From the NCBI GenBank assembly GCA_963662715.1, contig OY759724.1:300001-332000 (forward strand): DNA of 32,000 nucleotides, written 5' to 3'. Origin of the DNA: Candidatus Omnitrophota bacterium. GTDB taxonomy: Bacteria; Omnitrophota; Gorgyraeia; Zapsychrales; JANLHA01. The first letter of the stretch is position 1, and each line of letters starts with the position of its first letter. The notes under the pieces are model-generated. The model was not told the DNA's origin. It worked only from the letters and a program-made list of their open reading frames with translations, and did no database searches. Below are positions 1,462-26,466 of the stretch, piece after piece. Position numbers and translations under genes: made by a program.

Positions 1462-1465
1462 ATAT

Positions 1466-1741: not shown

Positions 1742-1757
1742 GACTTTATTCCTATGC

Positions 1758-2777: not shown

Positions 2778-2781
2778 TCCC

Positions 2782-5108: not shown

Positions 5109-5115
5109 CCCCGCA

Positions 5116-5793
5116 TTAAAGTGTTTTTGACCAAGAAATGCTTTTAATAAATATCCCGAAAGGATTAGCCGGATTATCCCTTAATGTCTTTGGTGAATCA
5201 GGCGGGATTTGCGTAACAATAAATAATCCCTTCCAGCGGCAACGCTCAATTTCCGTGTTATTCATATCACGCTCAGTTTCCTCCCATTCAACAATATAGG
5301 TATTCTCGGTTTGCTTTAGAAAGGTTAAAGGCTTAACCTGGACAGACTTTTTCCTTGCCATATCAAAAGGATTATTCTCCTGGTAATATTCATTCAGGAA
5401 ATTCCTGACAGGCGGGGCAGCCAAACGGTAAACATCATCAAAATTTTTACGCATCGCTTCCGGGTCTGAAATTATTGACCGGGCCATTTCGATAAAATCA
5501 TATAAGTAGGCACGAATAATTTTGTCATCTGCCATTTCTGTTTTTTGTGCAGGACCAGAAGCCACAGCCCGTCCTGTTTGGTCAACTTCGACAATCCAGG
5601 GAACTATTTCTCTTCTTAACCCTGTGGCAATCAGTCCTATCGCCAAGACAAAAATTATCAGCAATTCAAAGCAAGCGGCAATTTGCCAATTGTGCTTCTC
5701 CTGAATCGGCTGATTAAATAAGGCATTCCATTCCTTTCGAATATTGTGATAAGGATTCTTTTGATCCTTAGATTGTTTATTTGGTGTTTCCAT
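5116..5793 (-). CDS. trbF: T4SS protein TrbF (VirB8-like)
   Basis: 225 aa. NPYHNIRKEWNALF...W, then a TM helix, then VPWIVEVDQTGRA match the TrbF N-terminal pattern. It overlaps the 3' end of trbL by 17 nt. Confidence 0.8.
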   Translation of the reverse strand: METPNKQSKDQKNPYHNIRKEWNALFNQPIQEKHNWQIAACFELLIIFVLAIGLIATGLRREIVPWIVEVDQTGRAVASGPAQKTEMADDKIIRAYLYDFIEMARSIISDPEAMRKNFDDVYRLAAPPVRNFLNEYYQENNPFDMARKKSVQVKPLTFLKQTENTYIVEWEETERDMNNTEIERCRWKGLFIVTQIPPDSPKTLRDNPANPFGIFIKSISWSKTL

Positions 5794-6952
5794 GATTGTC
5801 TCCTGTATTTAAACCTCGTCTGGTCCCTCTACCTAAACCAGCTCCTGCTGATAATGTCTTAATATAATTCGCAACCTTCCCGCCGCCGGTTCTTGAAATA
5901 GATGCCTGCATCCTCTCTTTAAATTGACTGCCGGCTGCTGAAGCCAGCGTCTTAATCGTTGTGCCCGTAGCTATACCTATTTTGCCTATAGGTGTTGCTC
6001 CCGGAGTCATCTGGGCCTTTGCAACTCCGACCTTTGTGGCTTCATAAACAGCCGCACCTGCACCGACCGTTTCCCGTGCTGCCCCTGTCGTGCTGTGGAT
6101 TAAAGTTCGTGCTCCGTATAGACCGCCTAAAGCAGTACCGGCAGCTATCGTTCCAATACCGTGTCCAAAATTCATATTAATTGATCCGGTTAATAATGAT
6201 GCGCCCATATCCGGCACCTTCAACGCCATAAAAAGATAAGTCAAACTTGCCGCCAGAATAGAAAAGTAAGACTCAAAAAGATTGCCCTGTGCATTTTTAA
6301 CAACATTGATCCAATTGGTCGTCAATGTCTCGCCTAACCCCACAATCAAGGTTAGGAATAAAAGTTTTAATCCAATGTGAACAGCAGTCACAAAATACCG
6401 TTCTGCAAACTGTCTCGTCCATTGGCTCCCTGCAAAGCCTAAAACAACTATCCCTCCGGCTAAAATTATTTTCCCTCCGATTAAGGTTAGGGCCATTTCA
6501 ATAGAAATAAGTAAAAACGAAAGGAATACAAGAAGAGCAACAATCACATTAAAGATCGCAGCCCCGACCTTTTCCAGTAATCCGCCCGCAAAGGATGTCG
6601 TGAGCATAGTGCTCGCCAAATCGACTCCCCGTCTTGCCACATCGCCGGGATACAATTGACTTACGCCCACCATCTGCTCCCCTGCCTCGCGCAAGCTGTT
6701 ATAGATAGCTGGTATCCATGTGTCGGCATGATCAATCACCATGAGAAAGAATGACAGCACCAAAATCTTTTTGGCAAACTCAACCATAAGATTCGTCGGG
6801 TCGTCTCTGTTGAGCATCCACACGATTCCGGCCCAAATGATTTGAATGACAGCCAGCAACATAAAAAGGTCATGCGCAATATTAATTGCGATCACTTCCC
6901 AATTAAAAATATCATTGTTGTACTGGGCTAATAAATTATCGAAAATCTGCAT
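5777..6952 (-). CDS. trbL: T4SS inner-membrane protein TrbL/VirB6
   Basis: 391 aa, polytopic with about 6 hydrophobic helices and a Gly/Ala/Thr-rich C-terminal tail. Sits after trbJ. Confidence 0.8.
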   Translation of the reverse strand: MQIFDNLLAQYNNDIFNWEVIAINIAHDLFMLLAVIQIIWAGIVWMLNRDDPTNLMVEFAKKILVLSFFLMVIDHADTWIPAIYNSLREAGEQMVGVSQLYPGDVARRGVDLASTMLTTSFAGGLLEKVGAAIFNVIVALLVFLSFLLISIEMALTLIGGKIILAGGIVVLGFAGSQWTRQFAERYFVTAVHIGLKLLFLTLIVGLGETLTTNWINVVKNAQGNLFESYFSILAASLTYLFMALKVPDMGASLLTGSINMNFGHGIGTIAAGTALGGLYGARTLIHSTTGAARETVGAGAAVYEATKVGVAKAQMTPGATPIGKIGIATGTTIKTLASAAGSQFKERMQASISRTGGGKVANYIKTLSAGAGLGRGTRRGLNTGDNHGNTK

Positions 6953-7035
6953 CGGATAACCTTTTCCTTCTTAGACACTTCTTCCTTTTCTTAACAAATC
7001 CAGAATATTTATTAATAAAGGGGAGTTTATAAGAA

Positions 7036-7758
7036 TCAATACCCAGGGGTATTTCCCGCCGTAAACGGTATTTCATGAAAAAACTCTTCAGCAGCGGCAT
7101 TGTCCGCGGCTTCCTTATTAACCTGATGCGCCATATAGGCATTTTGGGCCTGTATCTGTGACATATTAAGCTGACGAAGTTTTTGTAGCTGTCCTACCAT
7201 TTCATTAGCGATCATATTCGCTGCCTGTAAAGCCTGGGTCTGGCCTTCCGCACTATCTGAAAGATTTCGTATTGTTTTCATAGTGGCATCTTCTGTCTGA
7301 AACTGATTGCTTTGTAATCCCGCTGCCGCAAAAGATCCGGCAATCGAATCCAGTGTTGTCTGCGACCAGTCCTGATAAGATTGAATATAATCTACAGGCG
7401 GGTCATACCCAGGATACTTTGCTTTAAACACCTGTTCGATATTCTGCAAGGTATAAGACATGGCCTGCCCTTGCTTGACAATCTGCTGAAGTTGCTGCAA
7501 AGCCTGGATTGTTTTTCCCCACTCGCTTTGAGGAAACGTGGCAATACTTTTAAACATCTCGATTTGATTCTGGATCATCTGAATTTGATTAACTACCATC
7601 TGTGCCTGTTTGGCTACTGAAGCAATCAACTCAGCATGATTCAATAACTGTGTCATTTCCGTCGCATAGATAGCATAGGAATTTTTAATAGGAACAATGC
7701 TAAAAATAAATATAAAAATCATATGTGTTATACGTTGATGTAATAGTTGTGTCTTCAT
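7036..7758 (-). CDS. trbJ: T4SS protein TrbJ (VirB5-like), secreted coiled-coil
   Basis: 240 aa with a signal peptide and a Gln-rich helical body (QMVVNQIQMIQNQIEMFK...). Lies immediately after trbE with a 4-nt gap. Confidence 0.7.
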   Translation of the reverse strand: MKTQLLHQRITHMIFIFIFSIVPIKNSYAIYATEMTQLLNHAELIASVAKQAQMVVNQIQMIQNQIEMFKSIATFPQSEWGKTIQALQQLQQIVKQGQAMSYTLQNIEQVFKAKYPGYDPPVDYIQSYQDWSQTTLDSIAGSFAAAGLQSNQFQTEDATMKTIRNLSDSAEGQTQALQAANMIANEMVGQLQKLRQLNMSQIQAQNAYMAHQVNKEAADNAAAEEFFHEIPFTAGNTPGY

Positions 7759-7762
7759 CGTC

Positions 7763-10231
7763 TTACCCCCTCCTGTTTGTTAAACTTTCATAAACCTCAT
7801 CCCATAAACCAGCCTCTTCATTCAAGCCATACTCACTCAACCAATATTTCACCCACGCCTCACCATGTTTTTGCTCCAAAGATTTAATTCGTTTGATATC
7901 TTCTAAAGAAGTCTTTCCCATAAAACTTAAAAATGCTTTCTCCAACTCCAAATCTATTAAGCGCATCCCTAAAGGAGAAGTGTAATAATAATGTTTCTTC
8001 GCAATCGCATTGGCAATGATCCCAATTTGCGTTTCATTTAGCCCTAAAGTTTTATACGCTTCTTCTCCTGTGGGGGATGCGGCTTGAGGATTGGGTAAAT
8101 AGACTTTGACCGGACAAGATTCAAGGATCACATCTTTGATCGAAGAATGAATAATGTCTGTGACATGCTGAGTACAAAAAACCACACATGCATTAGCCTT
8201 GCGCAGTTCACGAAGCCAGATTTTGAGTTTTTCTCTAAACATTTGATCATCAAAGACCGTCCATGCTTCATCAACCGCGATAAGTGTCGGGGCGCCGCTT
8301 AATCGCCGTTCAATCTGGTGAAACAGATAAGATAAGACCGGAATCGAAAACCGTTTTTCCTCTTCCATGAGCTTTGAGATTTCAAATACCTGGAAATGTC
8401 CATCCTGTAAGCTGTCATGTGATGCATCCAGCAAGTGCGCCATAACTCCCTTTTGGGTTGAGACGAACGGGTCAAGTGCTTTGCGTATTTCAGTGTTTTG
8501 AATGTTTAAACAAAAGTTCGAAAGTGTTTTCTCTTTATCTGACCGCAAGGCATTTATGGCATTACTGATCGCAATACGCTTCTCCGGGTTCATTTCAACC
8601 CCGGCTAATACGATCAACTCTTCCATCCATTCGCAGGCCCATCGTTTTTCGCTCTCAACAGCAATGTCTTTTAACGGAGAAAAGGTCAGGTGACTGTCAT
8701 CATCCAGGATGGGATAATGACGCGCACTACACGCCTTGACTAAAGCAAACATACTATTTCGTTTATCAAAACAAAATACCTGTGCTCCAGGGTAACGCAA
8801 GAATTGAACGCACATAAGGGAAAGTAATGTTGATTTACCTGATCCGGTCGGCCCGCAAATCATAGTATGCCCCACGTCATCCACATAATTGTTAAACCGG
8901 AAAGGCGCAGCTCCTTGCGTCGAAGCATAGAATAAGGAAGGGCTGTTTTTCTCAAGTCGAGGATTAGGATTGTACTCCTGTCCTGTCCATGTTCCGGCGA
9001 GCGGCATCAAATGAGTCATATTCAATGTATGTATGAGCGGCTTTCTGACATTACGAGCACTATCACCCGGCAAACTTCCAAGATACGCTTCAATAGCATT
9101 AATTGTTTCCACACGGGCCGGAAACCGTTTATCCGTTAGTAAATCACGGACAATTTTAACGCGCCGTTGACATTCACTCTCATCCTCGCAAATGATAACA
9201 ATGACCGATGAAAAATAACCGTAACGAACACCCCCTGCCTGAGCGATAGTCATAGCCTGATGAGCGTCCGCAGCCTTTTCGGCAGCTTCAATATTGCCAT
9301 ACTGACTCTCAGAGCCAGGCGAGATAATTTGCAGGATGATATTCTTTAAATTAAATTGTTTATTGTGCCATTTGAGCAATACCTTTTTGATTTCTTGCTC
9401 CGCATCAACCGGATCAAGGACAATAAAACGGATGGAGAACCGGTATTCAAAAGGCAAAGACATCAAGGCATTGCCAAGCATCTCGCTATGACTTTCCGAA
9501 GGGAACCCAACCACAGCAACCACACCGATATATTTCCCATCAATTTGCGGATGTATCCCACCGGTGAAGTCATACCCGCCCAGCAGATAATTAAGAAAAC
9601 CACCCTGCACATCGGCAAAATCAATGTATCGTGCAGTAATACAATAGTGAAGAAATCCCTGCATTTGTGTAGATGACATCTGTTCAACGTTTAACCGTGC
9701 ACCGCTAAGTCCGGATTCCACCTCAAGAATGACCTGCTTAAATTCTCGGCACAAAGATTCCATGTCTCTTTGCTTAACAGCATCGATTTTGTTTTTCTTC
9801 TCAGAAGTGACAAATAGCTTTTGAAACTTCCTGTCCTGTAAAGCCGAAGGTTTGTAGGTCAACGTTAAAACGTAGACCGTTTCAAAATGCCTCTGTGCCG
9901 ACTCAAAATTACTTTTTCGCTCACAATCAATAAGCCAGGATGTAGCATCAGGGAAAGAATTGTCATGAGGATATTCTGTAACAGGAATACGAATGGCATT
10001 AACATTGATAACCCAGCCTGTGCGCAGACTGCCCAGGACTGCGTTAACCTGAGAACATAGCGCATCTTTATCCTGAGCAGAGGACGAATCCAGATCAGGG
10101 CCGTGATAGTAAAATCCGGCCATTAAACTTCCGTCTTTATTGAGCAGAATACCCTCGTCTACAAAACCGAAGTAATTGATAAGATCAGGGAATCCTTTAA
10201 AATTATTTTGTGCTTCACTGTTTTTCTGCAT
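7763..10231 (-). CDS. trbE: T4SS ATPase TrbE/VirB4
   Basis: 822 aa. Walker A is ICGPTGSGKSTLL. Walker B-like region is PTLIAVDEAW, followed by VVFCTQH. Confidence 0.95.
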   Translation of the reverse strand: MQKNSEAQNNFKGFPDLINYFGFVDEGILLNKDGSLMAGFYYHGPDLDSSSAQDKDALCSQVNAVLGSLRTGWVINVNAIRIPVTEYPHDNSFPDATSWLIDCERKSNFESAQRHFETVYVLTLTYKPSALQDRKFQKLFVTSEKKNKIDAVKQRDMESLCREFKQVILEVESGLSGARLNVEQMSSTQMQGFLHYCITARYIDFADVQGGFLNYLLGGYDFTGGIHPQIDGKYIGVVAVVGFPSESHSEMLGNALMSLPFEYRFSIRFIVLDPVDAEQEIKKVLLKWHNKQFNLKNIILQIISPGSESQYGNIEAAEKAADAHQAMTIAQAGGVRYGYFSSVIVIICEDESECQRRVKIVRDLLTDKRFPARVETINAIEAYLGSLPGDSARNVRKPLIHTLNMTHLMPLAGTWTGQEYNPNPRLEKNSPSLFYASTQGAAPFRFNNYVDDVGHTMICGPTGSGKSTLLSLMCVQFLRYPGAQVFCFDKRNSMFALVKACSARHYPILDDDSHLTFSPLKDIAVESEKRWACEWMEELIVLAGVEMNPEKRIAISNAINALRSDKEKTLSNFCLNIQNTEIRKALDPFVSTQKGVMAHLLDASHDSLQDGHFQVFEISKLMEEEKRFSIPVLSYLFHQIERRLSGAPTLIAVDEAWTVFDDQMFREKLKIWLRELRKANACVVFCTQHVTDIIHSSIKDVILESCPVKVYLPNPQAASPTGEEAYKTLGLNETQIGIIANAIAKKHYYYTSPLGMRLIDLELEKAFLSFMGKTSLEDIKRIKSLEQKHGEAWVKYWLSEYGLNEEAGLWDEVYESLTNRRG

Positions 10232-10240
10232 GGCAACCTC

Positions 10241-10528
10241 TTAAATTCTTACACTCGTTTCACCGGCAGGGTAATAATCCCGATATTTGATGTGTCGAAA
10301 AAATATCTTGGTAAGCTGAGGATCGATCTTGGCTGCTTCACGGGCAAGAATGCTGCCGATCAGCCAGATAATCCCCGAGAGGATTAACGAGTTGATATCC
10401 TTTCCGGCTACCCAAACAATAGCTGACGTAAAACCGATCAATATAATTAATTCCCTTTCTGCCCCAGCAACTAACACAGGTTGTACAAGCGATTGATGAA
10501 TAGTTATTATTTTTATTTCCTCTGACAT
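10241..10528 (-). CDS. trbD: T4SS protein TrbD/VirB3
   Basis: 95 aa with two TM helices. The N-terminal IHQSLVQPVLVAGAEREL is typical of VirB3. Lies between the pilin and VirB4 genes. Confidence 0.8.
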   Translation of the reverse strand: MSEEIKIITIHQSLVQPVLVAGAERELIILIGFTSAIVWVAGKDINSLILSGIIWLIGSILAREAAKIDPQLTKIFFRHIKYRDYYPAGETSVRI

Positions 10529-10552
10529 CCGATCTCTCCCGGATAAAGGTGT

Positions 10553-10864
10553 TTAAAGCAACGATGCATTAAGACCAAATAATCCCATCAATCCCCAGGC
10601 GGAAGACACAATGCTAAAACCCAAGACTGTAGTAATGAATGCTCGAATTCCCCTGTTGACCTCCGAGAACATCAACGCCACAGCCGCAGCCACAAGAGCA
10701 ATGATTGAAATGCTGGTTGCTACCGGGCCCTGTAACGATTCTGCGATTTGAGTCAAAGGCCCTTCCCAAGGTAAGCTGCTCCCCACAATCCCGGCAAAAG
10801 CATTGTTTGCAAACCAAGCCATAAACCAGGGAGTTAAAATACATAACCGGATTATTGTTTTCAT
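10553..10864 (-). CDS. trbC: T4SS pilin precursor TrbC/VirB2
   Basis: 103 aa. Long signal peptide ending AFAG, followed by two hydrophobic helices. First structural gene of the operon. Confidence 0.8.
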   Translation of the reverse strand: MKTIIRLCILTPWFMAWFANNAFAGIVGSSLPWEGPLTQIAESLQGPVATSISIIALVAAAVALMFSEVNRGIRAFITTVLGFSIVSSAWGLMGLFGLNASLL

Positions 10865-13695: not shown

Positions 13696-14214
13696 TCAGA
13701 TGTTTAAAAAGACATAAACAGTATATTGACTACTTTGGACACTGTAATAATCACACATGAAAAGGTCACGGGCAAATTTTTCGTAATCAAAATAGAAAGC
13801 TAACCGTTCCGGGATGTCCATTGTTTCATCAGCCAAATTTTCCGCAAAGGCCTCTTCTGAGTCCCATTCCCCTTGATAGGATTCTTCAAACCCTTCTTCT
13901 GTGGCATAATCAACGCCCACGTTATTGGCATAAGCCGCGTAGGCTTCCCCATGCTCTTCAATGAGCCGGGCGTATCGGACCACATCTTTGATGCTTTCAT
14001 ATTCCGATAGATGAAGTCCTTCAAAGCCCTCGTAATCATGAATCGCGTACTCCTCTGCGAAGGGTTCCGGGCTGTTTTTTAGCATATCCTGAATTTCTTC
14101 ATGGATAGCATCCGCATCCTGATTCGCGTCAATCCATCTTCCATGCAGTTTGCCGTTGTTGTACGCCGCCAAACAGGCAACGTAAATCCGGGGTGTAATC
14201 GTTTGAGTAGCCAT
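13696..14214 (-). CDS. ardA: Anti-restriction protein ArdA
   Basis: PRIYVACLAAYNNGKLHGRWIDA, a very acidic body and a C-terminal FDYEKFARDLFMCDYYSV are typical of ArdA. I place the start at the internal ATG at 14214 (MATQTITPRIY...), which has AAGGAG 8 nt upstream, rather than the track start at 14280. Confidence 0.9.
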   Translation of the reverse strand: MATQTITPRIYVACLAAYNNGKLHGRWIDANQDADAIHEEIQDMLKNSPEPFAEEYAIHDYEGFEGLHLSEYESIKDVVRYARLIEEHGEAYAAYANNVGVDYATEEGFEESYQGEWDSEEAFAENLADETMDIPERLAFYFDYEKFARDLFMCDYYSVQSSQYTVYVFLNI

Positions 14215-14248
14215 GAGCGCATCTCCTTTTTTGAGGATTAATCCGTTG

Positions 14249-14407
14249 GAGATCGAACCCTCGATCTCTGTTTGACTCACTCATGGACATATGCCATGCA
14301 AGGATGCGCAGGCTTTCCTTAAATGATCAAAATAACCATTTGGGAGAAAGCCAAGCACTCGCAAGTCCTGATGGTCTTTTATCAGGACGCCGTCCTTGTG
14401 GCATATG
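14249..14407 (-). promoter_or_regulatory. Highly structured ardA leader or upstream region with nested inverted repeats
   Basis: Outer arms CATATGCC..CAAGG (14288-14303) and CCTTG..GGCATATG (14394-14407). They enclose GGCTTTC/GAAAGCC (14311-14317/14346-14352) and GTCCTGAT/ATCAGGAC (14365-14372/14381-14388). A further hairpin GAGATCGA/TCGATCTC sits at 14249-14268. Confidence 0.35.
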
Positions 14408-14515: not shown

Positions 14516-15412
14516 TTACATTATTGAGGCAGTTGCCGTGGACTTGCTATCTTCGATTTTACCCAAGTCCGCAGTAAAATAATAGCGCGAGGTGAGGATA
14601 GCATAAAGCCGCTTTGCCAGGCATTCAGCTTCTTGATCAGTTCCTTCTACCGAAACAACTGCCTCGTCGCCTTCCTGTAAACCCAAACATAAAAGAGCCA
14701 TGATAGATTTGGCATTGGGTTTATTATCATCCGAAGAGTTTTTTTCGCTGATAAAGACAGCATGTGGATATTTTCTGCATTCTTTTACTATTCGGGTGCC
14801 AGCGAAGAACCCAAGTCCGCCATTAAGATGAATCTGTACTTTAACAATGGTCTGATTATTTTCTTTTGATAGCTTGAATGGTTCAATGACATAGGGATTT
14901 GCCTGATATTTCTTGAGAAGATAGTCCAGGGATTGCTCAAGTTGTTTGCAGTCCTCCTTGTAATCATGAGTCCTCAGCACAGTGCAATCAGCGGCTTCCA
15001 AAAACCAAGCATCGATAAAAGACTGAATTTCTTCTTCAATATAGAGGATAACCGGGATATCATTTGTCTTCTTAATGGCCTTAATGAGCTTCCACCCTCG
15101 CCCATACGCTCGCTCATATTGAACCCGTCGGTCGAAGCATACAACTTCTTCTTCAGGAAGCGGAAATTTGCAGGCAAAGGCATAAGGCACATGCGTGATA
15201 ACAGCGTCAAAGGCTTCTTCTGTCCCGGCTTTTGCGCGAATGATTTCGATAGTATTATCATCCAATCCAAAGCAGGTCTCGAGATGATAGTGGCGGGATA
15301 ATGAATTGCAGATATATCGAAAGGCCGTGGATGTATCCTGCTCTTCCGTCTTTGACCTTTCGACGAAAAGGATTCGTTTTTGAGCTTGGGTTGTTGGATT
15401 GTCGGGGTTCAA
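14516..15412 (-). CDS. Fusion protein: N-terminal receiver-like alpha/beta domain plus C-terminal HPr-like (Crh-like, His15-less) domain
   Basis: 298 aa. Residues ~187-275 align with HPr/Crh: KVQIHLNGGLGFFAGTRIVKE...NAKSIMALLCLGLQEGDEAVVSVEGTDQEAECLAKRL against Crh KVEVRLKTGLQARPAALFVQE...NAKSIMGLMSLAVSTGTEVTLIAQGEDEQEALEKL. The N-terminus has KRILFVE...DAVITHV...IPVILY. The track start is a TTG placed directly against the SD, so the true start is uncertain. Confidence 0.7.
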   Translation of the reverse strand: MNPDNPTTQAQKRILFVERSKTEEQDTSTAFRYICNSLSRHYHLETCFGLDDNTIEIIRAKAGTEEAFDAVITHVPYAFACKFPLPEEEVVCFDRRVQYERAYGRGWKLIKAIKKTNDIPVILYIEEEIQSFIDAWFLEAADCTVLRTHDYKEDCKQLEQSLDYLLKKYQANPYVIEPFKLSKENNQTIVKVQIHLNGGLGFFAGTRIVKECRKYPHAVFISEKNSSDDNKPNAKSIMALLCLGLQEGDEAVVSVEGTDQEAECLAKRLYAILTSRYYFTADLGKIEDSKSTATASIM

Positions 15413-15471: not shown

Positions 15472-15744
15472 TCACGGTTTATTAATATTTGAAAATGTCG
15501 ATAGTAACAACAAAATAAATGCTATAAGACCTAAGTAAAACGGGAACCGCACTAAATTCACTCTCTTACTATCAAAATATATTTCTGGTTTCTTCAAAAA
15601 CCACAGATTACCAAAATTCATAGGAAATTTAATAAACGCATCGCTGTATGACAAATCTTTTCGTTTAAAAATAAACAAAAAAAATATATGGGTCATAAAA
15701 GAAAAAACTAATAAACTGAAAAGAATTAGGGTTGTATTTTTCAT
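15472..15744 (-). CDS. Small two-TM membrane protein, putative immunity protein for the RHS C-terminal toxin
   Basis: 90 aa with hydrophobic helices at both ends. Starts 17 nt after the RHS stop on the same strand. Very AT-rich: 11 G+C in the 60 nt at 15661-15720, by hand count. Confidence 0.55.
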   Translation of the reverse strand: MKNTTLILFSLLVFSFMTHIFFLFIFKRKDLSYSDAFIKFPMNFGNLWFLKKPEIYFDSKRVNLVRFPFYLGLIAFILLLLSTFSNINKP

Positions 15745-15761
15745 AATATAAAAACCAATTG

Positions 15762-18700
15762 TTATTTTAATAAAAAGTTTCGTAATTGAGGAAATTTTCT
15801 ACCCACATTACTTAATAAATCCTGCAAATCTGGAGGATTTATTGTCCCCTCTTCATGGCCCCATGTAACAACGAATTCAGGAGAAATACCAGCCCCAATT
15901 CCTCCAGCAATTCCACATGCACCTCCCAGCTCTCCTTCTCCATAAGTACCGGTTCCAGATATCTGTCCCGCAACACCCTGTCCAGCAGCGGCAAATCCAG
16001 ATATTGAGAATCCAAATTGCGAAATGTCTTCAGGGTCAATGAATGTTTCATAGATACCGACCTGTATGCTAACATACGCACCTCCTTTAGGTCCAACACC
16101 AACTGAACCATAAAACCATCGATGGTACTCACCAGTAGTAATATTGACTAATATCATTTCTCCACCGCCGCCAGTCAAACCTAAACCACCGGAGCCGCCA
16201 GCTACTATATACAACCATTTCTCCAACCCCATCGGATCTACAAAATTCACCGGATCGCCGAGGGTGTACGCATACAGATCCCAATCCCCACCATCAAAAC
16301 CGATAGGATCTTTGGCCGTCCATCTCCCTACTTCTGGGTCGTAATCGCGGAAGCCGAAGCGGACGAGGCCAGTATCGCGATCGTGGAGACCCCCAGCAAA
16401 ACCGAATGGGACTTCGAAGCTTGGTGCGCTGTCGTTAATGATGTTTCCGAAAGAATCGTAGTCGATGCGCTTGACAACTGCCCCACTTGCATCGGTGACT
16501 ACGCGCAACGAGCCGACTTGATCATAGGTCAAGTAGTAAGCGGAACCACCCTTCACCATTTTAAATGGCATTCTAGCGTCAGCATACTCAAACCGCATCA
16601 GTAGGTTATTCGAGCCGTTATATACCGCCAATAACTGCGTGAGGCCATCCCAGAGATATTTCTCGGTTGTAACGCTGTTGACTTGCTTGGCGATCCTTCT
16701 GCCTAGTGGATCGTGGACATATTTGATGGTATTTCCACCCGGAAGGGCTACCTCAAGCAGTTCTCCTCTTGAAGAATAATCATAGGTCGTTGAAGATATG
16801 CCTTCGACTTTCGTCCGCAGAAATCCGTCATCATCATACTGATACGTTGTACTTCCTGCGGTTAAAAGCTGGTCCTCATCATTGTAGCCGTAGCTCTTAC
16901 CGCTGATCCCCCGAAGAATGTTGGTTTCCAAAGAACGTATGCCATTATTATATGCATATTCTTCAACTAATGTACTATCCTTATACACTTTTGTCAATCG
17001 TCCAACAGCGTCGTACTCATAAGAATAGTCCGCTGTCACGCCTGCGACGGTTTCGGTCTTAGCCGAAATCTGTCCGTTATCATTATACGTCAACGACCAA
17101 TTCGTGACCGGTAAACTGTTAACTATGACAGCCTGATTCTCCAGTTCGCCATACCCATTAAAGGTGCGGCCTAGGTTGAGAACACCATCGTCAACAGACT
17201 CAGGCAATCCATTATTTGCATTACGGATAATCGTAAAGCCTGAAGCCGAAGTCAACAACCCGTCATTGTCATACCCAAATCCAGCAGTATCCCCTGAATA
17301 CGTAAAACCGGTCAATTGAAAATCATTGTTGTATGCATAGGAAAGCGCCTGATTCAGCGTCCCAGCCAATGTTTTGGATGTGACCAGAGCGCCGTCATAT
17401 CCATACGTCACAGATTCGCCGCTCTTGGACATGGTCTGCAACTGCCCTGATGACGGGAAATATATCATATCCACATTGCCTTCAGGCGTCTGAATCTGCG
17501 TGAGCTGGGTGTTGGTATAGATATTTTTGATAATTTTCCCGGATGGAAACGTCTTCTGCAATAGCCGCCGGTCTTTATCATAAGTATACGCATAATCAGC
17601 AGACAAGGGCGGATCATAGGTTTTAACTCCATTGACCTTGTTATAAATATACCCATGATTGATTGTTTTCGGGTTAGTCAGCACGGTCATGTTTCCGTTC
17701 AAGTCATACGTGAAATGGATATCCGTGGAATCCGGGCGATGCACCGCGGTAGTGCGGCCCACAGCATCATATTCAAAGGTCGTGATCTTATGCAGAGGAT
17801 CTTCAATGGACTGAACATTACCGTCGCTGTCATACATATACTGAGTCTGGCGCGTTCCGGTTGTAACCGACTGCAGGCGTCCGTCCGGATAATACAGGTA
17901 ATCCGTATCCAGCAATCCCGGCGCACTTACCTTTGAAGTTAACAGCGTTGCCGGATCATAGGTCGTCGTTACTGCCCTGCCTAGCGGCGAGGTCTGAGTG
18001 ATCTGCGAGGTAAGCGTATCATTAACGGATGAAGATGTCTTGCCGTTAACCGTGACTGTGCGTTCAATATGGTCAACCGCGCCATCCGTGTTCGTATCCG
18101 TGTATGTGCGGCTAGACGTAGTTTGCATTATCAGCCCTGCCGGAGTTTGTGCAGACATTTCCTTGATATATTTTGTTTTGTACTCCGGATCATAATCATA
18201 TTGAAAATCAAGGACTGTCCCATCTGGAAGAACTTTGTTGACTGTCAACTCATCCGCGGAGCGGGTGTAATCTGTGATCAAGCCGTCAGGGTCTGTAATG
18301 GTTGAGCTATATGTCCCATTGGTATCCGTATGATCTAGATACGTTGTGATATTGCCTTCGGCGGTGGTAACGGTCGTCTCAATATCGCCGTTATTCAGAA
18401 CCGTTCGGGCAAAAGATTTATGCCCTTCCTCCTGATCATAGGCATCGGTCAAACGTCCGTTTGCATCGAATGTATGCGTGAAATAATTGCCGTTAGGCTC
18501 GGTCTCTTTGGTCATGAGCCCGCCTAAAGTATACTCAAAATCATAACCCGTACTGTCAGGATATTCGATACGCGTCAGATGATCATCTGTATCAACGGTC
18601 AGTTCGTTGCGAACGCCGTCAGGTGAAATGATCGCGGTGGGTACGCCATCGCCATCGCGTTCGACCGTAACCACATTGCCCATATTGTCCGTGATCGAAA

Positions 18701-21700
18701 CAAGGCGGTCTTCACTATCATACCCAAACGTCTCAAGCGTAACACCTGTGTCCAGGTCGCGCGTTTCTTTGTGAAGTCCTGTTTCTGACATCACATACTC
18801 AAAGCCGTCTTCCACAAAGACCTTCTCTTGGGACGTCGAGGTCATCAGCGAATTCATTTCCTCTTCAGGAAGGTCCCGGTCATAGACCCGCACATCATCC
18901 ATCTTTCCTTTAAAATAGTTACCCCATGTTCTCACTACACCTATATATCCAACACCATTAGAATAATACATTGCCCCTGCATCCCCACTATATGCTCCAC
19001 CGACATTGATGCCATTAATATAAATATCCATATTATTGCGACCTCGAATCACACCAACAATATGCGTCCACATATGCAAAGGCAGTACTGTGCCGGTCGA
19101 TTTCGAGTTTCTTGTATGACTGGATGCACGAGTGCCTTCCCTATCCCTCCCGCTTCCAAAATGTGCCTCAACTCCTCCGGTTCCCGAAACCTCCATAAAC
19201 GGCCCAAAATAATGATCCGGCGGATCATCCAGGGAAATGAGTCCTCCCGTTTGATATCCTTCCGGATATATCCACATCGAAAAGGTTACCGGCAAAGATG
19301 GCCTAATTTGATTGCCAATATTAATATAGTCGTTCACTCCATCAAATTCATAGGCACTATTTTCCTGACCAAATCTGTCGTCAGACATTATCGCCCCGGA
19401 AACCGTCCCATCATTACTATAACCACCCTCATCATTGGCATTGCCGTCAAATGGATAATAGGCGATTAAGCCGGAATAAACACTGTTAATCAACGCATCT
19501 TTCAAAATCCGCCCGTCTCCCGTATACAACTTACCTGCGTTTTCTCCATGATGATTCGATAACGCCCATCCTTCCATCAGGATATTTTTTGCCTTTGACG
19601 GACTGCTGATTTTTAAAGTATATTTCTCCCATAACGTTATTTCATTCCGCGCTTTGACTCCTGTTACAGTTGTGCCGGTACTTCCAAAAGCACTTGATGA
19701 TGTAATCCCTTGATAAACGTTATCATACACAAACCCCACCTCTACAGAAGCGATTGCGGTCCCCACCCTATTCCCTAAATAATTCAACCCATCCCACAAA
19801 AATTCTATCTGTTGGTTAGGCAACGGATCAAGTGTCTGTTTCATCACCTGACCAGCGATCGTAAGACGCACAATAATACTTTTAAGCGAATCTGGGACCA
19901 TATCATCAGTAACAGGAACATTGATCACGGTTTTATAGTCCTGAGTCCGGTTGCTCGCGTAATGCAGGGTCAGGCCTGTGCCGGAGACAGGGATATCTTC
20001 ATGATATACACGGCTGCGGCATGTGGCATAAGAATTCAAATTTTCTTTACATGGATCAGAAGTTTGCTGATCAATATTTACTAACTTCGACAAGAGCCAT
20101 GTGATGGCATCAACTGGTATCCCAAACGGCCAGTTACAATCCCAAGGTGAAAAATGTTTTGTTGAAAAACGCCAATACGTCGTTCCCGGCACATATTTCG
20201 CCGGATTATTTAATCCCAAGACCTCATCATCAAAAAAACCATCTCCATCTAAATCATCCTCAACATCATCTCCATCCGCGTCTAAGGCATCCACCACACC
20301 ATCGCTGTTGGTGTCCAGAAGTTTCACAACGACCCCATTCTCCGAGGGAACCCAAACTCCTCGGTCACGATCGTAATATCCCACCGGGACTATTTCTCCT
20401 ACATCAAACCCTAAAAAGTTATCTACGTAATTGACAATGGGTTTATCAAAACGCACGCGCTCTACTCCATCCACTTTAAGCTCTGCGCAGTATGTAAACG
20501 CGGATGTCGGAGGCAGGACTGCCGGCATGGACTCAGGAGTAGTGTATTCCGTAGCACGGGTAGTAATAGTATTAAGCTCAAACATATCGTTACCGTATTC
20601 ATCAACCGCATAAGCTTTATTATCTCCTGTGAAAACCATCGTTGCCCTGCGCGTGCCGGATTCGTCCGTAACCGGCGTACTTTCGTGGACGATAACTGTA
20701 TTCGGGTTACTGTCAAATGTAAAAGTAGTGGCCTTGGTGTCTTCGGCAATCATTGTGATTGTCTCAACAATCGCGATATCATTCCATGGAACATTCACCT
20801 TACGGTGCGCGGTCAGCAGACCATCTTTACTAAAGATAACATTGAGCGTGCCGCCCCCTTCAACTGGCAATGAATACTGACCATTCATATTGGTTTTTGT
20901 CGTCCCGTATTCCGGATGGTTGTCGATGGCAACAAGCACATCGGCCAAAGGAACTTCATTCACGTCATTAACATATCCTGTAATAAGAGAAAACCGCTTG
21001 GAATCATATTCTTCAATGGTTGCGTCGGGTGGGATAATGTTTTCATATTGCTTTCCAAAAGAACCCTCCGGTAAAGGCGTTGGAGTAGATTCAACGGTTA
21101 CCATGACTTGTGCGCTAGCAGAACCTTCCGGGCCCGTTGCTGTGATCGTATAGATGGATGTGCTGGCCGGAGAGACTTCCATAGTGTCGTTGGCAGAAAC
21201 AAGCCCTATGCCGTGATCAATGTATACACTGGTAACATTTTCCGCAAGCCAGGATAAAATCGTTGAGTCACCTTTTTGAATTGTTTGCGGAGAGGCCGTG
21301 ATATTGACAATTGGAAGAAGTGCAGAGCTTTCGACAACAATGGTAACATTATCAGTTGCAACCCCTCCCGCCCCCGACACTGTAATTGTGTAAGCTATGG
21401 TTGAGGCAGGTGAAACATCCTGCAAATCATTGCAATCCACAATACCAATGTCAGGCACAATTTCACACGTGTCTGCATTTGTTGATATCCAACTCAGTGT
21501 AGATGTTTCTCCTTCCTGAATTGTCATTGGATCAGCTTCTATATCAACCGTAGGCGCCTCCGGTGGCGGATTGACCGTGACTGTCACACTATCTACCGCA
21601 CTCCCGCCCGCACCTGTGGCGGTTATTGTGTACGTGGTAGTCTCATCGGGTGTGAGGGGAATTGATCCTGACGGGCCGAAAGTGCCCAATCCAGGAGTAA

Positions 21701-22229
21701 TCTCACAGGAATCAGTATCCGTTGAGGTCCAACTCAATGTGATTGATTCCCCTTCTATGACCGTTGCAGGATTAGAATTGATGCTGACCGTCGGTTGAGC
21801 TGGCGGCACTTTTATATCCCCTAAAATCTCGACTGTATAAGTAAACCTTGCCCGCTGGGAATTGTCAAATTCCCATCTTTTACTATCAGTTGTTGCACCC
21901 GGTAACAATTCGCCCAAAGCAACAGAATATTCAAAATATGGCTTTCCATCAGATGTCATCCCATCTGGATTCGCTACGGTAACACTGGCAGCACTGATAC
22001 TATCAATAACCGCCTTCATCGGAGTTAATAATGTATCCTGAGAGGTATTCTTTAACGAAACGTCCAAGTAATTAATACTGGTTCTGCGGTCAAAACTGAG
22101 TCTTGATTTAATCAGCTCAATCTTACCGGTAATATCCGTTTCCGCCGATGAAATGGTTAAAAATGAAAAAAGTGCGCAAACGATTCCCAGGACAATCAAC
22201 CAAATAGACTTCTTAAAATGTTGAGTCAT
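15762..22229 (-). CDS. RHS/YD-repeat polymorphic toxin, teneurin-like architecture (2155 aa)
   Basis: Domain order: Sec signal peptide; 3 Ig-like repeats; CarboxypepD_reg-like domain; Asp-rich Ca-binding-like stretch (DALDADGDDVEDDLDGDGFFDDE); LamG/ConA-like domain (YYPFDGNANDEGG...MDDVRVYDRDL); dozens of YD repeats (YxYDxxGR/N); RHS core end motif GDPVNFVDPMGL; then a 153-aa C-terminal domain. SD GGGAGGAG precedes the ATG. Confidence 0.95.
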   Translation of the reverse strand: MTQHFKKSIWLIVLGIVCALFSFLTISSAETDITGKIELIKSRLSFDRRTSINYLDVSLKNTSQDTLLTPMKAVIDSISAASVTVANPDGMTSDGKPYFEYSVALGELLPGATTDSKRWEFDNSQRARFTYTVEILGDIKVPPAQPTVSINSNPATVIEGESITLSWTSTDTDSCEITPGLGTFGPSGSIPLTPDETTTYTITATGAGGSAVDSVTVTVNPPPEAPTVDIEADPMTIQEGETSTLSWISTNADTCEIVPDIGIVDCNDLQDVSPASTIAYTITVSGAGGVATDNVTIVVESSALLPIVNITASPQTIQKGDSTILSWLAENVTSVYIDHGIGLVSANDTMEVSPASTSIYTITATGPEGSASAQVMVTVESTPTPLPEGSFGKQYENIIPPDATIEEYDSKRFSLITGYVNDVNEVPLADVLVAIDNHPEYGTTKTNMNGQYSLPVEGGGTLNVIFSKDGLLTAHRKVNVPWNDIAIVETITMIAEDTKATTFTFDSNPNTVIVHESTPVTDESGTRRATMVFTGDNKAYAVDEYGNDMFELNTITTRATEYTTPESMPAVLPPTSAFTYCAELKVDGVERVRFDKPIVNYVDNFLGFDVGEIVPVGYYDRDRGVWVPSENGVVVKLLDTNSDGVVDALDADGDDVEDDLDGDGFFDDEVLGLNNPAKYVPGTTYWRFSTKHFSPWDCNWPFGIPVDAITWLLSKLVNIDQQTSDPCKENLNSYATCRSRVYHEDIPVSGTGLTLHYASNRTQDYKTVINVPVTDDMVPDSLKSIIVRLTIAGQVMKQTLDPLPNQQIEFLWDGLNYLGNRVGTAIASVEVGFVYDNVYQGITSSSAFGSTGTTVTGVKARNEITLWEKYTLKISSPSKAKNILMEGWALSNHHGENAGKLYTGDGRILKDALINSVYSGLIAYYPFDGNANDEGGYSNDGTVSGAIMSDDRFGQENSAYEFDGVNDYINIGNQIRPSLPVTFSMWIYPEGYQTGGLISLDDPPDHYFGPFMEVSGTGGVEAHFGSGRDREGTRASSHTRNSKSTGTVLPLHMWTHIVGVIRGRNNMDIYINGINVGGAYSGDAGAMYYSNGVGYIGVVRTWGNYFKGKMDDVRVYDRDLPEEEMNSLMTSTSQEKVFVEDGFEYVMSETGLHKETRDLDTGVTLETFGYDSEDRLVSITDNMGNVVTVERDGDGVPTAIISPDGVRNELTVDTDDHLTRIEYPDSTGYDFEYTLGGLMTKETEPNGNYFTHTFDANGRLTDAYDQEEGHKSFARTVLNNGDIETTVTTAEGNITTYLDHTDTNGTYSSTITDPDGLITDYTRSADELTVNKVLPDGTVLDFQYDYDPEYKTKYIKEMSAQTPAGLIMQTTSSRTYTDTNTDGAVDHIERTVTVNGKTSSSVNDTLTSQITQTSPLGRAVTTTYDPATLLTSKVSAPGLLDTDYLYYPDGRLQSVTTGTRQTQYMYDSDGNVQSIEDPLHKITTFEYDAVGRTTAVHRPDSTDIHFTYDLNGNMTVLTNPKTINHGYIYNKVNGVKTYDPPLSADYAYTYDKDRRLLQKTFPSGKIIKNIYTNTQLTQIQTPEGNVDMIYFPSSGQLQTMSKSGESVTYGYDGALVTSKTLAGTLNQALSYAYNNDFQLTGFTYSGDTAGFGYDNDGLLTSASGFTIIRNANNGLPESVDDGVLNLGRTFNGYGELENQAVIVNSLPVTNWSLTYNDNGQISAKTETVAGVTADYSYEYDAVGRLTKVYKDSTLVEEYAYNNGIRSLETNILRGISGKSYGYNDEDQLLTAGSTTYQYDDDGFLRTKVEGISSTTYDYSSRGELLEVALPGGNTIKYVHDPLGRRIAKQVNSVTTEKYLWDGLTQLLAVYNGSNNLLMRFEYADARMPFKMVKGGSAYYLTYDQVGSLRVVTDASGAVVKRIDYDSFGNIINDSAPSFEVPFGFAGGLHDRDTGLVRFGFRDYDPEVGRWTAKDPIGFDGGDWDLYAYTLGDPVNFVDPMGLEKWLYIVAGGSGGLGLTGGGGEMILVNITTGEYHRWFYGSVGVGPKGGAYVSIQVGIYETFIDPEDISQFGFSISGFAAAGQGVAGQISGTGTYGEGELGGACGIAGGIGAGISPEFVVTWGHEEGTINPPDLQDLLSNVGRKFPQLRNFLLK
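15765..16223 (-). other. RHS C-terminal toxin domain (153 aa), glycine-zipper-rich, candidate membrane-active effector
   Basis: Begins right after DPMGL (GAG codon at 16221-16223). Contains GGSGGLGLTGGGG, GFAAAGQGVAGQISG and GGACGIAGGIGAGI. No nuclease, deaminase or peptidase motif recognised. Confidence 0.5.
21090..21797 (-). repeat. Three tandem ~80-aa Ig-like repeats inside the RHS N-terminus (protein-level repeat)
   Basis: Repeated pattern P.TI.EGES.TLSW.S...C.I.P.IG......SP..T..YTIT.TG.GG.A...VTV at residues ~145-380. The DNA copies have diverged. Confidence 0.7.
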
Positions 22230-22290: not shown

Positions 22291-22899
22291 TTATAAAGCG
22301 GACAACTTGTCATAAAGCTCTTTCTGGGCTTTAGAAAAAGTCCTGTTAATAGCTAGGTTTGCTCTTTCATGTGCTTTTCGGTGATAAGTGGGTCCCGTTC
22401 CAGCACCGCTTTCCTCTCGATCATGACAGACAACCTCGGCTAAAGTTACTGGCTGACCGTTTTTAACTTCAATGACTTCAAAACGAATGCTAATCTCAAA
22501 AGCGGCTTTGGTGAATAACATCATTTTAGCTTTATAATGGACATCTTCTATTGTGACTCGAAGAACAAGGGGATGGTCTGCTGAGGCTGAATTTTCTTCC
22601 TGCTCTCTACCGAAGAGCGACGTCATTAAATTTTTGCTGTTTTGCAAAAAGACATCATAGAAATCCGCACGCATACGTTCTAGCCTTTCTCCTTTGTGAC
22701 CAATCGGGAATATTTCCAAAACACGAGCATCTTCAAAGGAGTCAGTATCGATTGTCCACGGACGGTTTGAAACAAGCTTCGACTCCATCTTGAATGAATG
22801 GTGCGTCCGTGAAGCCATGCGCTCAGATGTGCATGCTGAGAACAGAATCGGTAAAAATAAGATTGAAAAATATATCTTCACACATTTATTCATAATCAT
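22291..22899 (-). CDS. Lipoprotein, unknown function
   Basis: 202 aa. Signal peptide with lipobox LFSAC. Its start shares one nucleotide with the upstream gene's stop (TAATG). Lies 61 nt upstream of the RHS gene. Confidence 0.75.
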   Translation of the reverse strand: MIMNKCVKIYFSILFLPILFSACTSERMASRTHHSFKMESKLVSNRPWTIDTDSFEDARVLEIFPIGHKGERLERMRADFYDVFLQNSKNLMTSLFGREQEENSASADHPLVLRVTIEDVHYKAKMMLFTKAAFEISIRFEVIEVKNGQPVTLAEVVCHDREESGAGTGPTYHRKAHERANLAINRTFSKAQKELYDKLSAL

Positions 22900-23519
22900 T
22901 ACTCCTTTTTATTAAGCAAGGGAGAATTATTTATAAGTTTCTTAACTAGGCTCCCAATTGCCGTTTTTTGCGGATCAGTGCTAAATTCATGAATCACCGT
23001 CCTTGAACTTGAAAGAGCAACTAAAGTAAAAGGTGTGTCGATCCAATCCTGATTTGCCTGTTCAGACCAGAACAATTTCCCTGTTTCATTATCGACAATA
23101 TAAAGGGTAACTGCGGCTTTTCCCGTTTCTGCCAAAATGGGAATACCCTCTTTTTCATTTTTATCGATAGTATAAATAAGGACGTGTTTGAAGGCTGTCG
23201 GGGCTATAGCACGCATGTTTTTTCCTGATTTAATTGATTCGATTTGGGCTGGAGTGATTTTGAAATCAGGACAGCAATCACTTGAAATGATGAGTGAATA
23301 ACCGTTATCGGCTAAATTACTGACTATTCCTGTATAAAGCCAATTCTTAATGGGGTAATATTTCTCTTTAGAGCCTGTGTCCTCAATAACAAGCAATGGC
23401 GCGAGAATGACTTTTTCACGAGTCGAATAATCAGCGGTATGCTCCATAGTACCGCAACCCGCAAAGATAAGAAGGAAAACGATAAAGGTAAATAAAAATA
23501 CCGACCTTTTTATAGACAT
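22899..23519 (-). CDS. Lipoprotein, possibly LpoB/DUF799-like alpha/beta fold
   Basis: 206 aa with lipobox IFAGC. The pattern VILAPL...LADNGYSLI...HVLIYTID...VTLYIVDNETGKLFWSE recalls TolB-N/LpoB/GNA1162-type lipoproteins. That family call is inference only. Confidence 0.7.
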   Translation of the reverse strand: MSIKRSVFLFTFIVFLLIFAGCGTMEHTADYSTREKVILAPLLVIEDTGSKEKYYPIKNWLYTGIVSNLADNGYSLIISSDCCPDFKITPAQIESIKSGKNMRAIAPTAFKHVLIYTIDKNEKEGIPILAETGKAAVTLYIVDNETGKLFWSEQANQDWIDTPFTLVALSSSRTVIHEFSTDPQKTAIGSLVKKLINNSPLLNKKE

Positions 23520-23860: not shown

Positions 23861-24403
23861 CTATGTACGAATTCTTCTCTTCTTTCTGCTGCCAAATACA
23901 CCAGCCAAGCCCGTGCTGAAAAGAAACAATGTACATGGCTCAGGAATGACATTCGACTCTGTGGCCAAATCAATGTTATAAAGGCGTGCGGTACTGCCAG
24001 CGTCAAAATCTCCTCCCCAGATCAATCCCCAGGCCAGAGATACTTCACTTCCCTGATACGAGGATAAGTCGATGTCATAATGACCGGCAGATGTGTTAGC
24101 ATCCACCTCCAATTCCGGGAAAAAGTCCAGTTCAAACGTAAAATAATCATCCACATCATCGGGCCCAAGCTGAAAATCATAGTCAAAAGACAAAATCGTG
24201 GCATCATTCTCGACAAGAAAGTTATCATTGAAAAAATACCAAGCCACGTTATCCATTGTTTCCGTGAATGAAACTTCCCCGCCACTGACAACCACATCAT
24301 CCTCTGCCGTAAAACCGCTTAAATCGAGCGGCATGGCTTGTGCAATCCGACAGCATAATAACATGCAAAAACTTACACATAGCACCATAAACATTCGTCT
24401 CAT
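23861..24403 (-). CDS. PEP-CTERM sorting-domain secreted protein
   Basis: 180 aa with an N-terminal signal peptide. The C-terminal VIPEPCTLFLFSTGLAGVFGSRKKRRIRT gives a PEP motif, a TM helix and a basic tail. Confidence 0.9.
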   Translation of the reverse strand: MRRMFMVLCVSFCMLLCCRIAQAMPLDLSGFTAEDDVVVSGGEVSFTETMDNVAWYFFNDNFLVENDATILSFDYDFQLGPDDVDDYFTFELDFFPELEVDANTSAGHYDIDLSSYQGSEVSLAWGLIWGGDFDAGSTARLYNIDLATESNVIPEPCTLFLFSTGLAGVFGSRKKRRIRT

Positions 24404-25311: not shown

Positions 25312-26466
25312 TTATACTTTACGGCGCATTACAACTTTAAACATGTTCCCATCTTTATCATTGACAAAATCAATATCTGGATACTCTTTTAAAGCTCTTT
25401 GCACGCCGGTCCCGATCCCGCGATAGGGTAATATCTTTGTTGCAAATGAAGACAATATTGGATTGCGTACATTGGAATTACCATTTTTGATATTCTCAAC
25501 TGTCAAGTTATTGGGCAAATGACCAGGACTAATAAATTCAAGACGGTTATCAAATATGAATATTCTTATGGATGCAGAAATAAAATAATCTCTATGGATT
25601 AATGCATTGACCAATAACTCCTCAATTGCTATTTCGGGTATTTCAAGCACTCCAAGAGAATTAATATTTTGACCATTTTGAACTTTTTTTAAATTTCTAA
25701 GAATAAACGATTTGCTTTCTTTGAAAACGTCTTCTAATTTTCCTACCACATCAACACTTTCTATATATGTTGTTGAATGAATGTCATTGCCTGGATAACA
25801 TATAGCCTTAACTATGCTTCTAACTGGCAACTTTATTTGTGGATTTTTAGCAAAAAGAAGTGCTCCACCTACATTCATATTTCCATCTTTCATCAAATTC
25901 ATGTTTTCCAGAAGGACTGGAAGAGGGTTTTCTTGATCATCGAGCTTGATCCCATTGATTTTTTCAAAAAACATGGAAAAATATTGCACGTCTAATTCAG
26001 CAACAGTCATATTAGAAATAATTTCCTCATCCCCATGTAGTAAACCAGCTTTTTGAAATAACCGTTGTATTTCTTCTTTGGCAGTAGCTTTGCGTTTGTC
26101 TGCACCACTTTTTACCCAGAAAACGCCATCTTTGTCAGAATACGGCTTGCTTATACCATCTATGACAGTAATAATGATTATAATCTTTCCGTCTAACGAA
26201 ATGTTTTCCGTATGGGGATTAATGGGATTCTTGACATGCTGGGATGCTGCGTTAGATATCAGATTATTCAATCGGTTAATATCCTGCTGTGACAAACCAA
26301 CAATATCACCATTATCGTTTACACCGATAAATATTTGTCCTCCTCCAGAATTACTAAAAGCAATCATTTCTTGTGCTAATGAAATCTCGTTGGTGAAATC
26401 CTGTTTGAATTGATGTTTACTATCTTCCCCCCGAGAAATTATTTCTAAGAATTCTGTAACTTCCAT
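25312..26466 (-). CDS. AlbA_2 (Schlafen-like DNA/RNA-binding) plus HATPase_c_4 domain protein
   Basis: 384 aa. The N-terminus EDSKHQFKQDF...EMIAFSNSGGGQIFIGVNDNGDIVGL is AlbA_2. The C-terminus EELLVNALIHRDYF...IFIFDNRLEFISPGHLPNNLTVENI..GNSNVRNPIL...RGIGTGVQR is RecG-C/HATPase_c_4-like. Its start overlaps the upstream gene by 22 nt. Confidence 0.85.
   Translation of the reverse strand: MEVTEFLEIISRGEDSKHQFKQDFTNEISLAQEMIAFSNSGGGQIFIGVNDNGDIVGLSQQDINRLNNLISNAASQHVKNPINPHTENISLDGKIIIIITVIDGISKPYSDKDGVFWVKSGADKRKATAKEEIQRLFQKAGLLHGDEEIISNMTVAELDVQYFSMFFEKINGIKLDDQENPLPVLLENMNLMKDGNMNVGGALLFAKNPQIKLPVRSIVKAICYPGNDIHSTTYIESVDVVGKLEDVFKESKSFILRNLKKVQNGQNINSLGVLEIPEIAIEELLVNALIHRDYFISASIRIFIFDNRLEFISPGHLPNNLTVENIKNGNSNVRNPILSSFATKILPYRGIGTGVQRALKEYPDIDFVNDKDGNMFKVVMRRKV

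Follow-up and report, generated by a model that had tools for sequence, protein, structure and literature searches.

What does the RHS gene of this locus carry at its 3' end, and what is the small open reading frame (ORF) behind it? The locus lies in a stretch of 32,000 nucleotides from a Candidatus Omnitrophota bacterium (assembly GCA_963662715.1, contig OY759724.1, positions 300,001 to 332,000 of the forward strand), called the window below, with positions counted from its first letter. A minus-strand gene of the window encodes a 2155-aa RHS/teneurin-like protein with a glycine-rich C-terminal domain (CT), and a 90-aa ORF, here called orf90, begins 17 nt downstream. An earlier note on this DNA had read the CT as a membrane-inserting pore-former with glycine-zipper motifs and orf90 as its immunity gene. 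Our analysis confirmed the observation and partly supported the interpretation. The tail adds one more cargo to a bacterial toxin system that is well known, and it is not the helical glycine-zipper pore-former first proposed; judged by its sequence, it is a clear member of a recurrent, unnamed family of polymorphic-toxin CTs. The features concerned are as follows.

15762..22229, minus strand: RHS/teneurin-like polymorphic toxin gene, a 2155-aa ORF in the ORF list.
16224..16256, minus strand: RHS core boundary DPVNFVDPMGL (aa 1992-2002), recognised by its motif; predicted autoproteolytic release site.
15840..16223, minus strand: beta-domain of the CT (CT aa 1-128), Gly-rich and predicted all-beta, from the phmmer family, the family alignment A1 and AlphaFold2 (AF2).
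15765..15839, minus strand: helical tail ending the CT (CT aa 129-153; family motif LPxx...), from predicted AF2 helices and the conserved columns L128-L129-P130.
15745..15761, minus strand: 17-nt spacer from the RHS stop to the orf90 start, with no Shine-Dalgarno motif.
15472..15744, minus strand: orf90, a 90-aa transmembrane (TM)-loop-TM protein and candidate immunity gene, from the ORF list, hydropathy and AF2.
15472..16166, minus strand: cassette of low GC content at third codon positions (GC3), covering the CT from about residue 20 and orf90, from the GC3 change point.

The tail of 153 aa (15765..16223) follows the core boundary DPVNFVDPMGL, as the earlier note had stated. The comparison of RHS orthologues at DPxGL that the note had suggested agrees with this boundary: alignments with the 120 closest RHS cores (60-70% identity) stopped at residue 2002 (mode) or 2003 (median), and none of these cores carried this CT. 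By analogy with the RHS family, we infer that the cleavage releasing the CT would occur here. A word-indexed homologue search with the CT returned nothing, and its relatives surfaced only in an exhaustive phmmer search, which gave 50 clusters (defined at 50% identity) at E<1e-3, namely the window's own protein and 49 others; 17 clusters were found at E<1e-10. The family alignment A1 contains 42 sequences, and the leave-one-out hidden Markov model (HMM) score of the window CT was 125.4 bits, within the family range of 100-192. The domain was always C-terminal and nearly always joined to an RHS core, and in most proteins it stood directly after the RHS DPxGL motif. A few members had other or unrecognised N-terminal regions, one of them with a sub-threshold match to DUF637, a CdiA/FHA-type domain. 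The search of the tail against toxin CT families that the note had also suggested gave no match in Pfam or NCBIfam, either for the window CT or for any of the 42 aligned members, and PDB sequence and family-profile searches with the CT were equally empty. Given this recurrence after RHS DPxGL and the lack of Pfam, NCBIfam and PDB matches, we therefore regard the tail as belonging to an unnamed polymorphic-toxin CT family. Its reported lack of enzymatic motifs also held, as no known enzymatic toxin family was matched in these three libraries. No second copy of the CT appeared when the entire window was scanned in six frames with an HMM.

In members of the family, about 125 aa form beta-hairpins rich in Gly, Ala, Ser and Thr, and a short helical tail comes after them. 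Column statistics showed strands in which strongly hydrophobic positions alternate with near-invariant Gly/Ser positions, together with several aromatic positions. Charged residues make up only 10% of the beta-domain across the family, compared with 21.7% in the YD shell of the same protein. The AF2 model of the CT, calculated with the 42-sequence alignment, had a mean predicted local distance difference test score (pLDDT) of 93.4 and a predicted TM-score of 0.84. It was all-beta over residues 2-127, with strands at 2-14, 16-26, 32-43, 48-59, 70-90 and 99-127, and ended in helices at 130-143 and 145-152.

This model bears on the proposal of a helical glycine-zipper pore-former like Tse5-CT, EsxX or TelE, in which GxxxG helices of the CT would enter the membrane and assemble into oligomers. 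Toxins of this kind are known from Rhs proteins (PMC12744356), a small membrane-protein ORF lies downstream as in the case of Tsi5, and the tail is rich in glycine (35 residues, 23%) and contains the three GxxxG strings quoted in the earlier note. However, neither the GxxxG motifs (9 observed vs 7.6 ± 2.1 in shuffles, p=0.33) nor the zipper motifs (8 vs 4.9 ± 3.0, p=0.19) were more numerous than in shuffled sequences, and the runs result from the 23% glycine content. No 19-residue Kyte-Doolittle window of the tail reached TM-level hydrophobicity (maximum 1.28) and no TM helix was predicted. The Gly runs were located within strands and tight hairpins of the AF2 model (pLDDT 93), and the PDB chains, among them the Tse5 shell chain, gave no match to the CT by sequence or by profile. 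The all-beta model, the lack of a hydrophobic helix and the chance-level GxxxG count therefore led us to reject a Tse5-type helical glycine zipper, which we consider highly improbable. The CT still resembles Tse5-CT/Tsi5 of Pseudomonas aeruginosa, EsxX, TelE, TspA and CdzC/D in its richness in glycine, its Rhs carrier, its small membrane-protein partner and a plausible membrane-linked action, but it differs from them in its lack of hydrophobic helices, its chance-level motifs, its predicted all-beta fold and the absence of sequence similarity. The result is also a caution for sequence-only reading, as GxxxG strings arise by chance at high glycine content.

A Foldseek search with the CT model against PDB and BFVD revealed no match at E<=1e-3. 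Several GFP-like matches were spurious (TM-score about 0.2, root-mean-square deviation (RMSD) 16 Å). The sole structure-like match was VapG of Rhodococcus (Prescottella) equi (PDB ID 5aeo), with a probability of 0.99, a borderline TM-score of 0.42/0.52, 118 aligned columns, an RMSD of 5.1 Å and an E value of 0.013. VapG is a small Gly-rich beta domain like the window CT, the Vap fold being an eight-stranded beta-barrel, and the related VapA reportedly renders membranes permeable to protons and thereby raises the pH in endolysosomal compartments. Homology was rejected at the profile level, however: hhalign of A1 with six genuine Vap sequences taken from a virulence plasmid gave a probability of 0.1, and there was no match to Pfam R_equi_Vir. 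We treat the Vap-likeness of the modelled fold as no more than a structural lead.

The DNA around family members, drawn from a genome collection, metagenomes and a contig index, was used to identify their partner genes. A downstream gene was identifiable in 14 related loci and encoded an integral membrane protein in all 14 (12 of class i and 2 of class ii). At L009 and L014, which stand outside these calls, the downstream ORFs were partial and too short for a confident call. Class i partners, found directly after the CT gene in L001-L008, L010/L011, L012, L015 and L017, are 150-185 aa long and combine two TM helices at the N-terminus with a basic PH-like C-terminal domain of about 90 aa. They are mutually homologous, as an HMM built on 7 of the loci matched the other 5 at E values from 8e-8 to 7e-13, and their only matches in Pfam/NCBIfam were sub-threshold ones to the bacterial PH families bPH_6 and bPH_10. 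Class i is a previously unnamed partner family. Class ii comprises the 91-aa TM-loop-TM proteins of L016 and L018, which match each other at a BLASTP E value of 1e-20. The CTs of these two loci are sister taxa in a neighbour-joining tree and share the class ii partner; toxin and partner therefore co-vary at the class level. In both classes, as in orf90, the soluble parts are K/R-rich and are predicted to be cytoplasmic by the positive-inside rule. Since all partner genes identified for the family code for integral membrane proteins, a membrane-linked action of the CT family is plausible from these gene neighbourhoods. This much of the pore-former reading in the earlier note stands, although its glycine-zipper basis does not.

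Two of the related loci contain remnants typical of the orphan CT/immunity modules usual for RHS loci. In L001 (5008..5357) a 3' fragment of the same CT is accompanied by the class i partner in a second, truncated copy, and in L012 (7541..8914) further RHS-CT fragments with different toxins lie downstream.

The composition of the locus links the CT with orf90. The hand counts of G+C in the earlier note (11 of 60 in 15661-15720 and 33 of 60 in 16381-16440) were exact, and total GC is 26.7% in orf90 vs 46.3% in the RHS body. GC3 is 0.456 in the RHS body, 0.268 in the CT, 0.289 in orf90 and 0.35-0.46 in the neighbouring genes. A likelihood change point of GC3 was found at about codon 2022, some 20 codons past DPMGL, where it drops from 0.51 to 0.24 (log-likelihood ratio 17) and then stays low through orf90. 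This break is sharper than total GC had suggested and is hidden there by the glycine codons of the CT, which push up GC at the first two codon positions; for sequence-only reading, such masking of a compositional break that GC3 reveals is a further caution. Related loci behave similarly: in 10 of 11, GC3 is lower both in the CT and in the partner than in the RHS body. The shared low GC3 of the CT and orf90 therefore indicates one acquired cassette, and its different compositional origin from the RHS body is supported. Thus the separate origin by cassette swapping that the earlier note had proposed for the immunity gene is supported and extends to the CT itself, which lies inside the low-GC cassette. 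A repeat search for recombination scars around the cassette gave only chance-level short repeats. The change point (window position 16166, about CT residue 20) adjoins E19G, one of the substitutions of the window CT described below. From the sequence, a recombination junction may lie inside the first beta-hairpin of the CT, which may then be chimeric.

The ORF, its 17-nt spacer and its two hydrophobic helices, all claimed in the earlier note, were confirmed for orf90. Kyte-Doolittle analysis revealed strongly hydrophobic segments at about aa 7-25 and 64-82, and single-sequence AF2 gave helices at 2-39 and 59-87 with a moderate pLDDT of 70. The loop between the hydrophobic segments has 38 aa, 8 of them K or R, and is predicted to be cytoplasmic by the positive-inside rule. 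A 90-codon open frame is improbable by chance in such AT-rich composition (P of about 7e-4 per frame). Together with this, its location where partners sit, its size and topology with a K/R-rich loop as in class ii and its CT-like GC3 favour the view that orf90 is probably a real gene, and it is the best candidate for an immunity role in the window.

The RHS identity of the carrier is solid from its domain matches. The protein consists of an N-terminal signal-peptide-like segment, Ig-like repeats, TTR, an FN-plug region, LamG, the YD shell, the RHS-associated core and the CT. Pfam matches include TEN_YD-shell (2.7e-42, aa 1144-1988), RHS_repeat (2.2e-34, in 9 stretches), TTR_TEN1-4 (9.8e-18) and Laminin_G_3 (2.5e-19, aa 963-1124), and the NCBIfam model TIGR03696 Rhs_assc_core matched aa 1924-2002 at 1.4e-21. 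In the PDB, the shell matched the bacterial teneurin-like protein (TLP) of B. inaquosorum, BiTLP (9pt5/9ifo), at an E value of 9e-122. The TTR/TIP/FN-plug region (aa 410-851) aligned with BiTLP 397-842 at 1e-75; the Pfam FN-plug match alone was sub-threshold (0.0055). No NHL beta-propeller was matched by Pfam in the RHS protein, and BiTLP 842-1272 has no counterpart in it. A region of about 290 aa with Laminin_G_3 (aa ~852-1140, window ~18810..19670) stands where the propeller would be, with the BiTLP alignment on both flanks. Three Ig-like repeats, arranged in tandem and each about 95 aa long (aa ~140-390, window ~21200..22100), follow the signal-peptide-like N-terminus and show the pattern '...SWxSTxADxCxIxPxIG...YTITAxGxGG'. 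The source names of the closest RHS cores include Desulfobacterales, Thermodesulfobacteriota and Ca. Electrothrix.

The overall architecture, a RHS/teneurin-like carrier with exchangeable toxin cargo, is ordinary. Bacterial TLPs have the same YD shell, RHS-associated core and DPxGL motif, and they carry a polymorphic C-terminal domain (CTD) of about 15 kDa with a small immunity gene immediately downstream (PMC13018210). TLP carriers include Desulfobacterales (PMC13018210), and the closest cores of the window protein come from Desulfobacterales-type bacteria. The window protein differs in having LamG in place of the NHL propeller, the defining feature of the TLP 'superfold', in carrying a CT of another, unnamed family and in being encoded on a conjugative element. 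Membrane-damaging CTs are known on RHS/TLP shells from Tse5 (PMC12744356) and from BiTLP, whose hydrophobic CTD permeabilises E. coli only if sent to the periplasm (PMC13018210). Some TLP CTDs are 'OMP-like', that is, like outer-membrane proteins (OMPs), for example in D. oleivorans (PMC13018210). The CTDs of Desulfosudis oleivorans TLP1 and of Paenibacillus oryzisoli resemble the window CT in being Gly-rich, beta-type domains with a length of about 135-150 aa, placed behind a YD shell of Desulfobacterales that is very similar, and the partner of D. oleivorans TLP1 is a small multi-TM protein. However, no OMP was found among the top Foldseek matches of the window CT model. The D. oleivorans TLP1 CTD scored -2.8 bits in hmmsearch and had an hhalign probability of 10%, sharing only a local DPCTG...GW motif. 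The TLP1 and TLP2 CTDs of this species (supplement of PMC13018210) were rejected as family members, as neither was detectable.

From these findings we propose that the gene for a teneurin-like, Sec-exported RHS protein, itself cargo of a conjugative element, acquired a toxin/partner cassette at its 3' end by horizontal transfer. The CT would be freed from the YD shell at DPMGL and delivered into a neighbouring cell. There it would act at or in the cytoplasmic membrane, most likely by disturbing its integrity or potential, as a compact or oligomerising beta structure and not via transmembrane glycine-zipper helices. The membrane-anchored partner would neutralise it from the cytoplasmic face. 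Taken as a whole, that is, release, delivery, action at the cytoplasmic membrane and neutralisation by a membrane-anchored partner, we regard this reading as evenly poised between right and wrong.

Several results weigh against it. The window CT departs from the family at 4 of 22 conserved columns (E19G, D27N, G46K and G115P) and thereby lacks both of the acidic residues that the family conserves (E19 in 40 of 42 members, D27 in 38 of 42); given these substitutions, it may be inactive. The CT fold has no confident structural neighbour in PDB or BFVD that would point to a function. The beta-rich 'OMP-like' CTD of the D. oleivorans TLP, which is not a detectable family member, was non-toxic in the E. 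coli cytoplasm (PMC13018210). A six-frame HMM scan found no class i gene in any frame of the window. No Shine-Dalgarno site was found before orf90, whereas most other genes of the window have GGAGG-like sites, and orf90 had no homologues in a word-indexed protein search or among PLSDB plasmids. It matches neither partner class, with an hhalign probability of 0.3 and an HMM E value of 1.2 against class i and no significant BLASTP alignment with class ii (best E 0.1 over 16 residues), which weakens the immunity claim in the earlier note. Its resemblance to class ii is one of size and topology only. Likewise, orf90 had no match to the immunity proteins of D. oleivorans and S. fumaroxidans. The CT/orf90 pair of the window is thus atypical and probably represents a divergent singleton lineage.

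These departures could mean that the module has decayed, the CT being an inactivated or relic copy without its key residues and its canonical immunity gene, and orf90 an unrelated or spurious ORF in AT-rich DNA. The four substitutions at conserved columns, the lack of a class i or class ii partner in the window, the missing Shine-Dalgarno site and homologues of orf90 and its GC content, which is flat over the codon positions (0.26/0.26/0.29), would all fit. Yet the reading frame of the CT is intact, its score of 125 bits is well inside the family range, and D27N also occurs in P0011, which retains its class i partner. The low chance probability of a 90-codon open frame argues against a spurious orf90, and so does its placement exactly where partners sit, with class ii-like size, TM-loop-TM architecture and CT-like GC3. 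On balance we consider decay of the module unlikely.

It could also be that the CT acts without forming a pore. The beta-domain would then bind, or act enzymatically on, a target in the envelope or associated with the membrane, for example a membrane protein or lipid carrier, and the partners would simply co-localise with it. The conservation of one E and one D in the family is in line with this, as are the compact fold, confidently predicted as a monomer, and the soluble domains of the partners, predicted to be cytoplasmic as for toxin-sequestering binders. On the other hand, the CT matched no enzyme family or solved structure, its charge content is very low, its strand faces are formed by Gly/Ser, and the window copy lacks both acidic residues. 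We judge such a non-pore activity improbable.

In contrast to the ordinary carrier, the cargo is what is new here: a CT family unannotated in Pfam, NCBIfam and PDB, with an all-beta fold that is predicted with confidence and has no clear neighbour, and with consistent membrane partners over more than 12 metagenomic loci. If the proposed action on membranes is true, a beta-type mechanism would join a field in which helical glycine-zipper and colicin-like pore-formers prevail, and the 2TM + PH-like partners would define a new immunity family. More tentatively, the family might represent a new structural class of interbacterial membrane toxin, that is, a small beta domain with glycine faces, without a near relative among solved folds but perhaps with a remote likeness to Vap, which would damage the cytoplasmic membrane without TM helices. 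It would be countered by the 2TM + PH-like family and by at least two unrelated TM-loop-TM mini-proteins, and the window would represent a switch of immunity class accompanying the loss of the acidic pair. We see this extended version as a doubtful but possible one.

The surroundings of the RHS gene contain a complete P-type conjugative transfer module (10..10864 and 13696..14280, minus strand) with relaxase, VirB11, TrbI/VirB10, VirB9, VirB8, TrbL/VirB6, TrbE/VirB4 and TrbC/VirB2 genes, together with an ArdA antirestriction gene. Because this P-type type IV secretion system, relaxase and ArdA lie in the window, which as a whole is a conjugative element, the RHS toxin gene is cargo of a conjugative plasmid or an integrative and conjugative element. 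TrbE had at most 41% identity to anything in PLSDB, and neither the region (blastn/tblastn) nor the CT or orf90 gave a match to the plasmids of that database.

Directly downstream of the cassette (14516..15412, minus strand) lies a gene for a 298-aa protein with a C-terminal phosphotransferase system HPr domain (E 6e-10) and an N-terminal half without an assigned domain. Immediately upstream of the RHS gene, two genes with the same orientation (22291..22899 and 22899..23519, minus strand) encode proteins of about 200 aa with lipoprotein-type signal peptides (LFSAC and FAGC lipoboxes); neither protein was matched in Pfam, and both may serve the RHS protein as accessory or export factors. Further upstream, a PEP-CTERM protein gene was found at 23861..24403. 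At 25312..29087 (minus strand), a gene for a Schlafen/AlbA_2-HATPase_c_4 protein overlaps that of an 880-aa AAA/SMC-like ATPase, and the two look like a defence-system gene pair.

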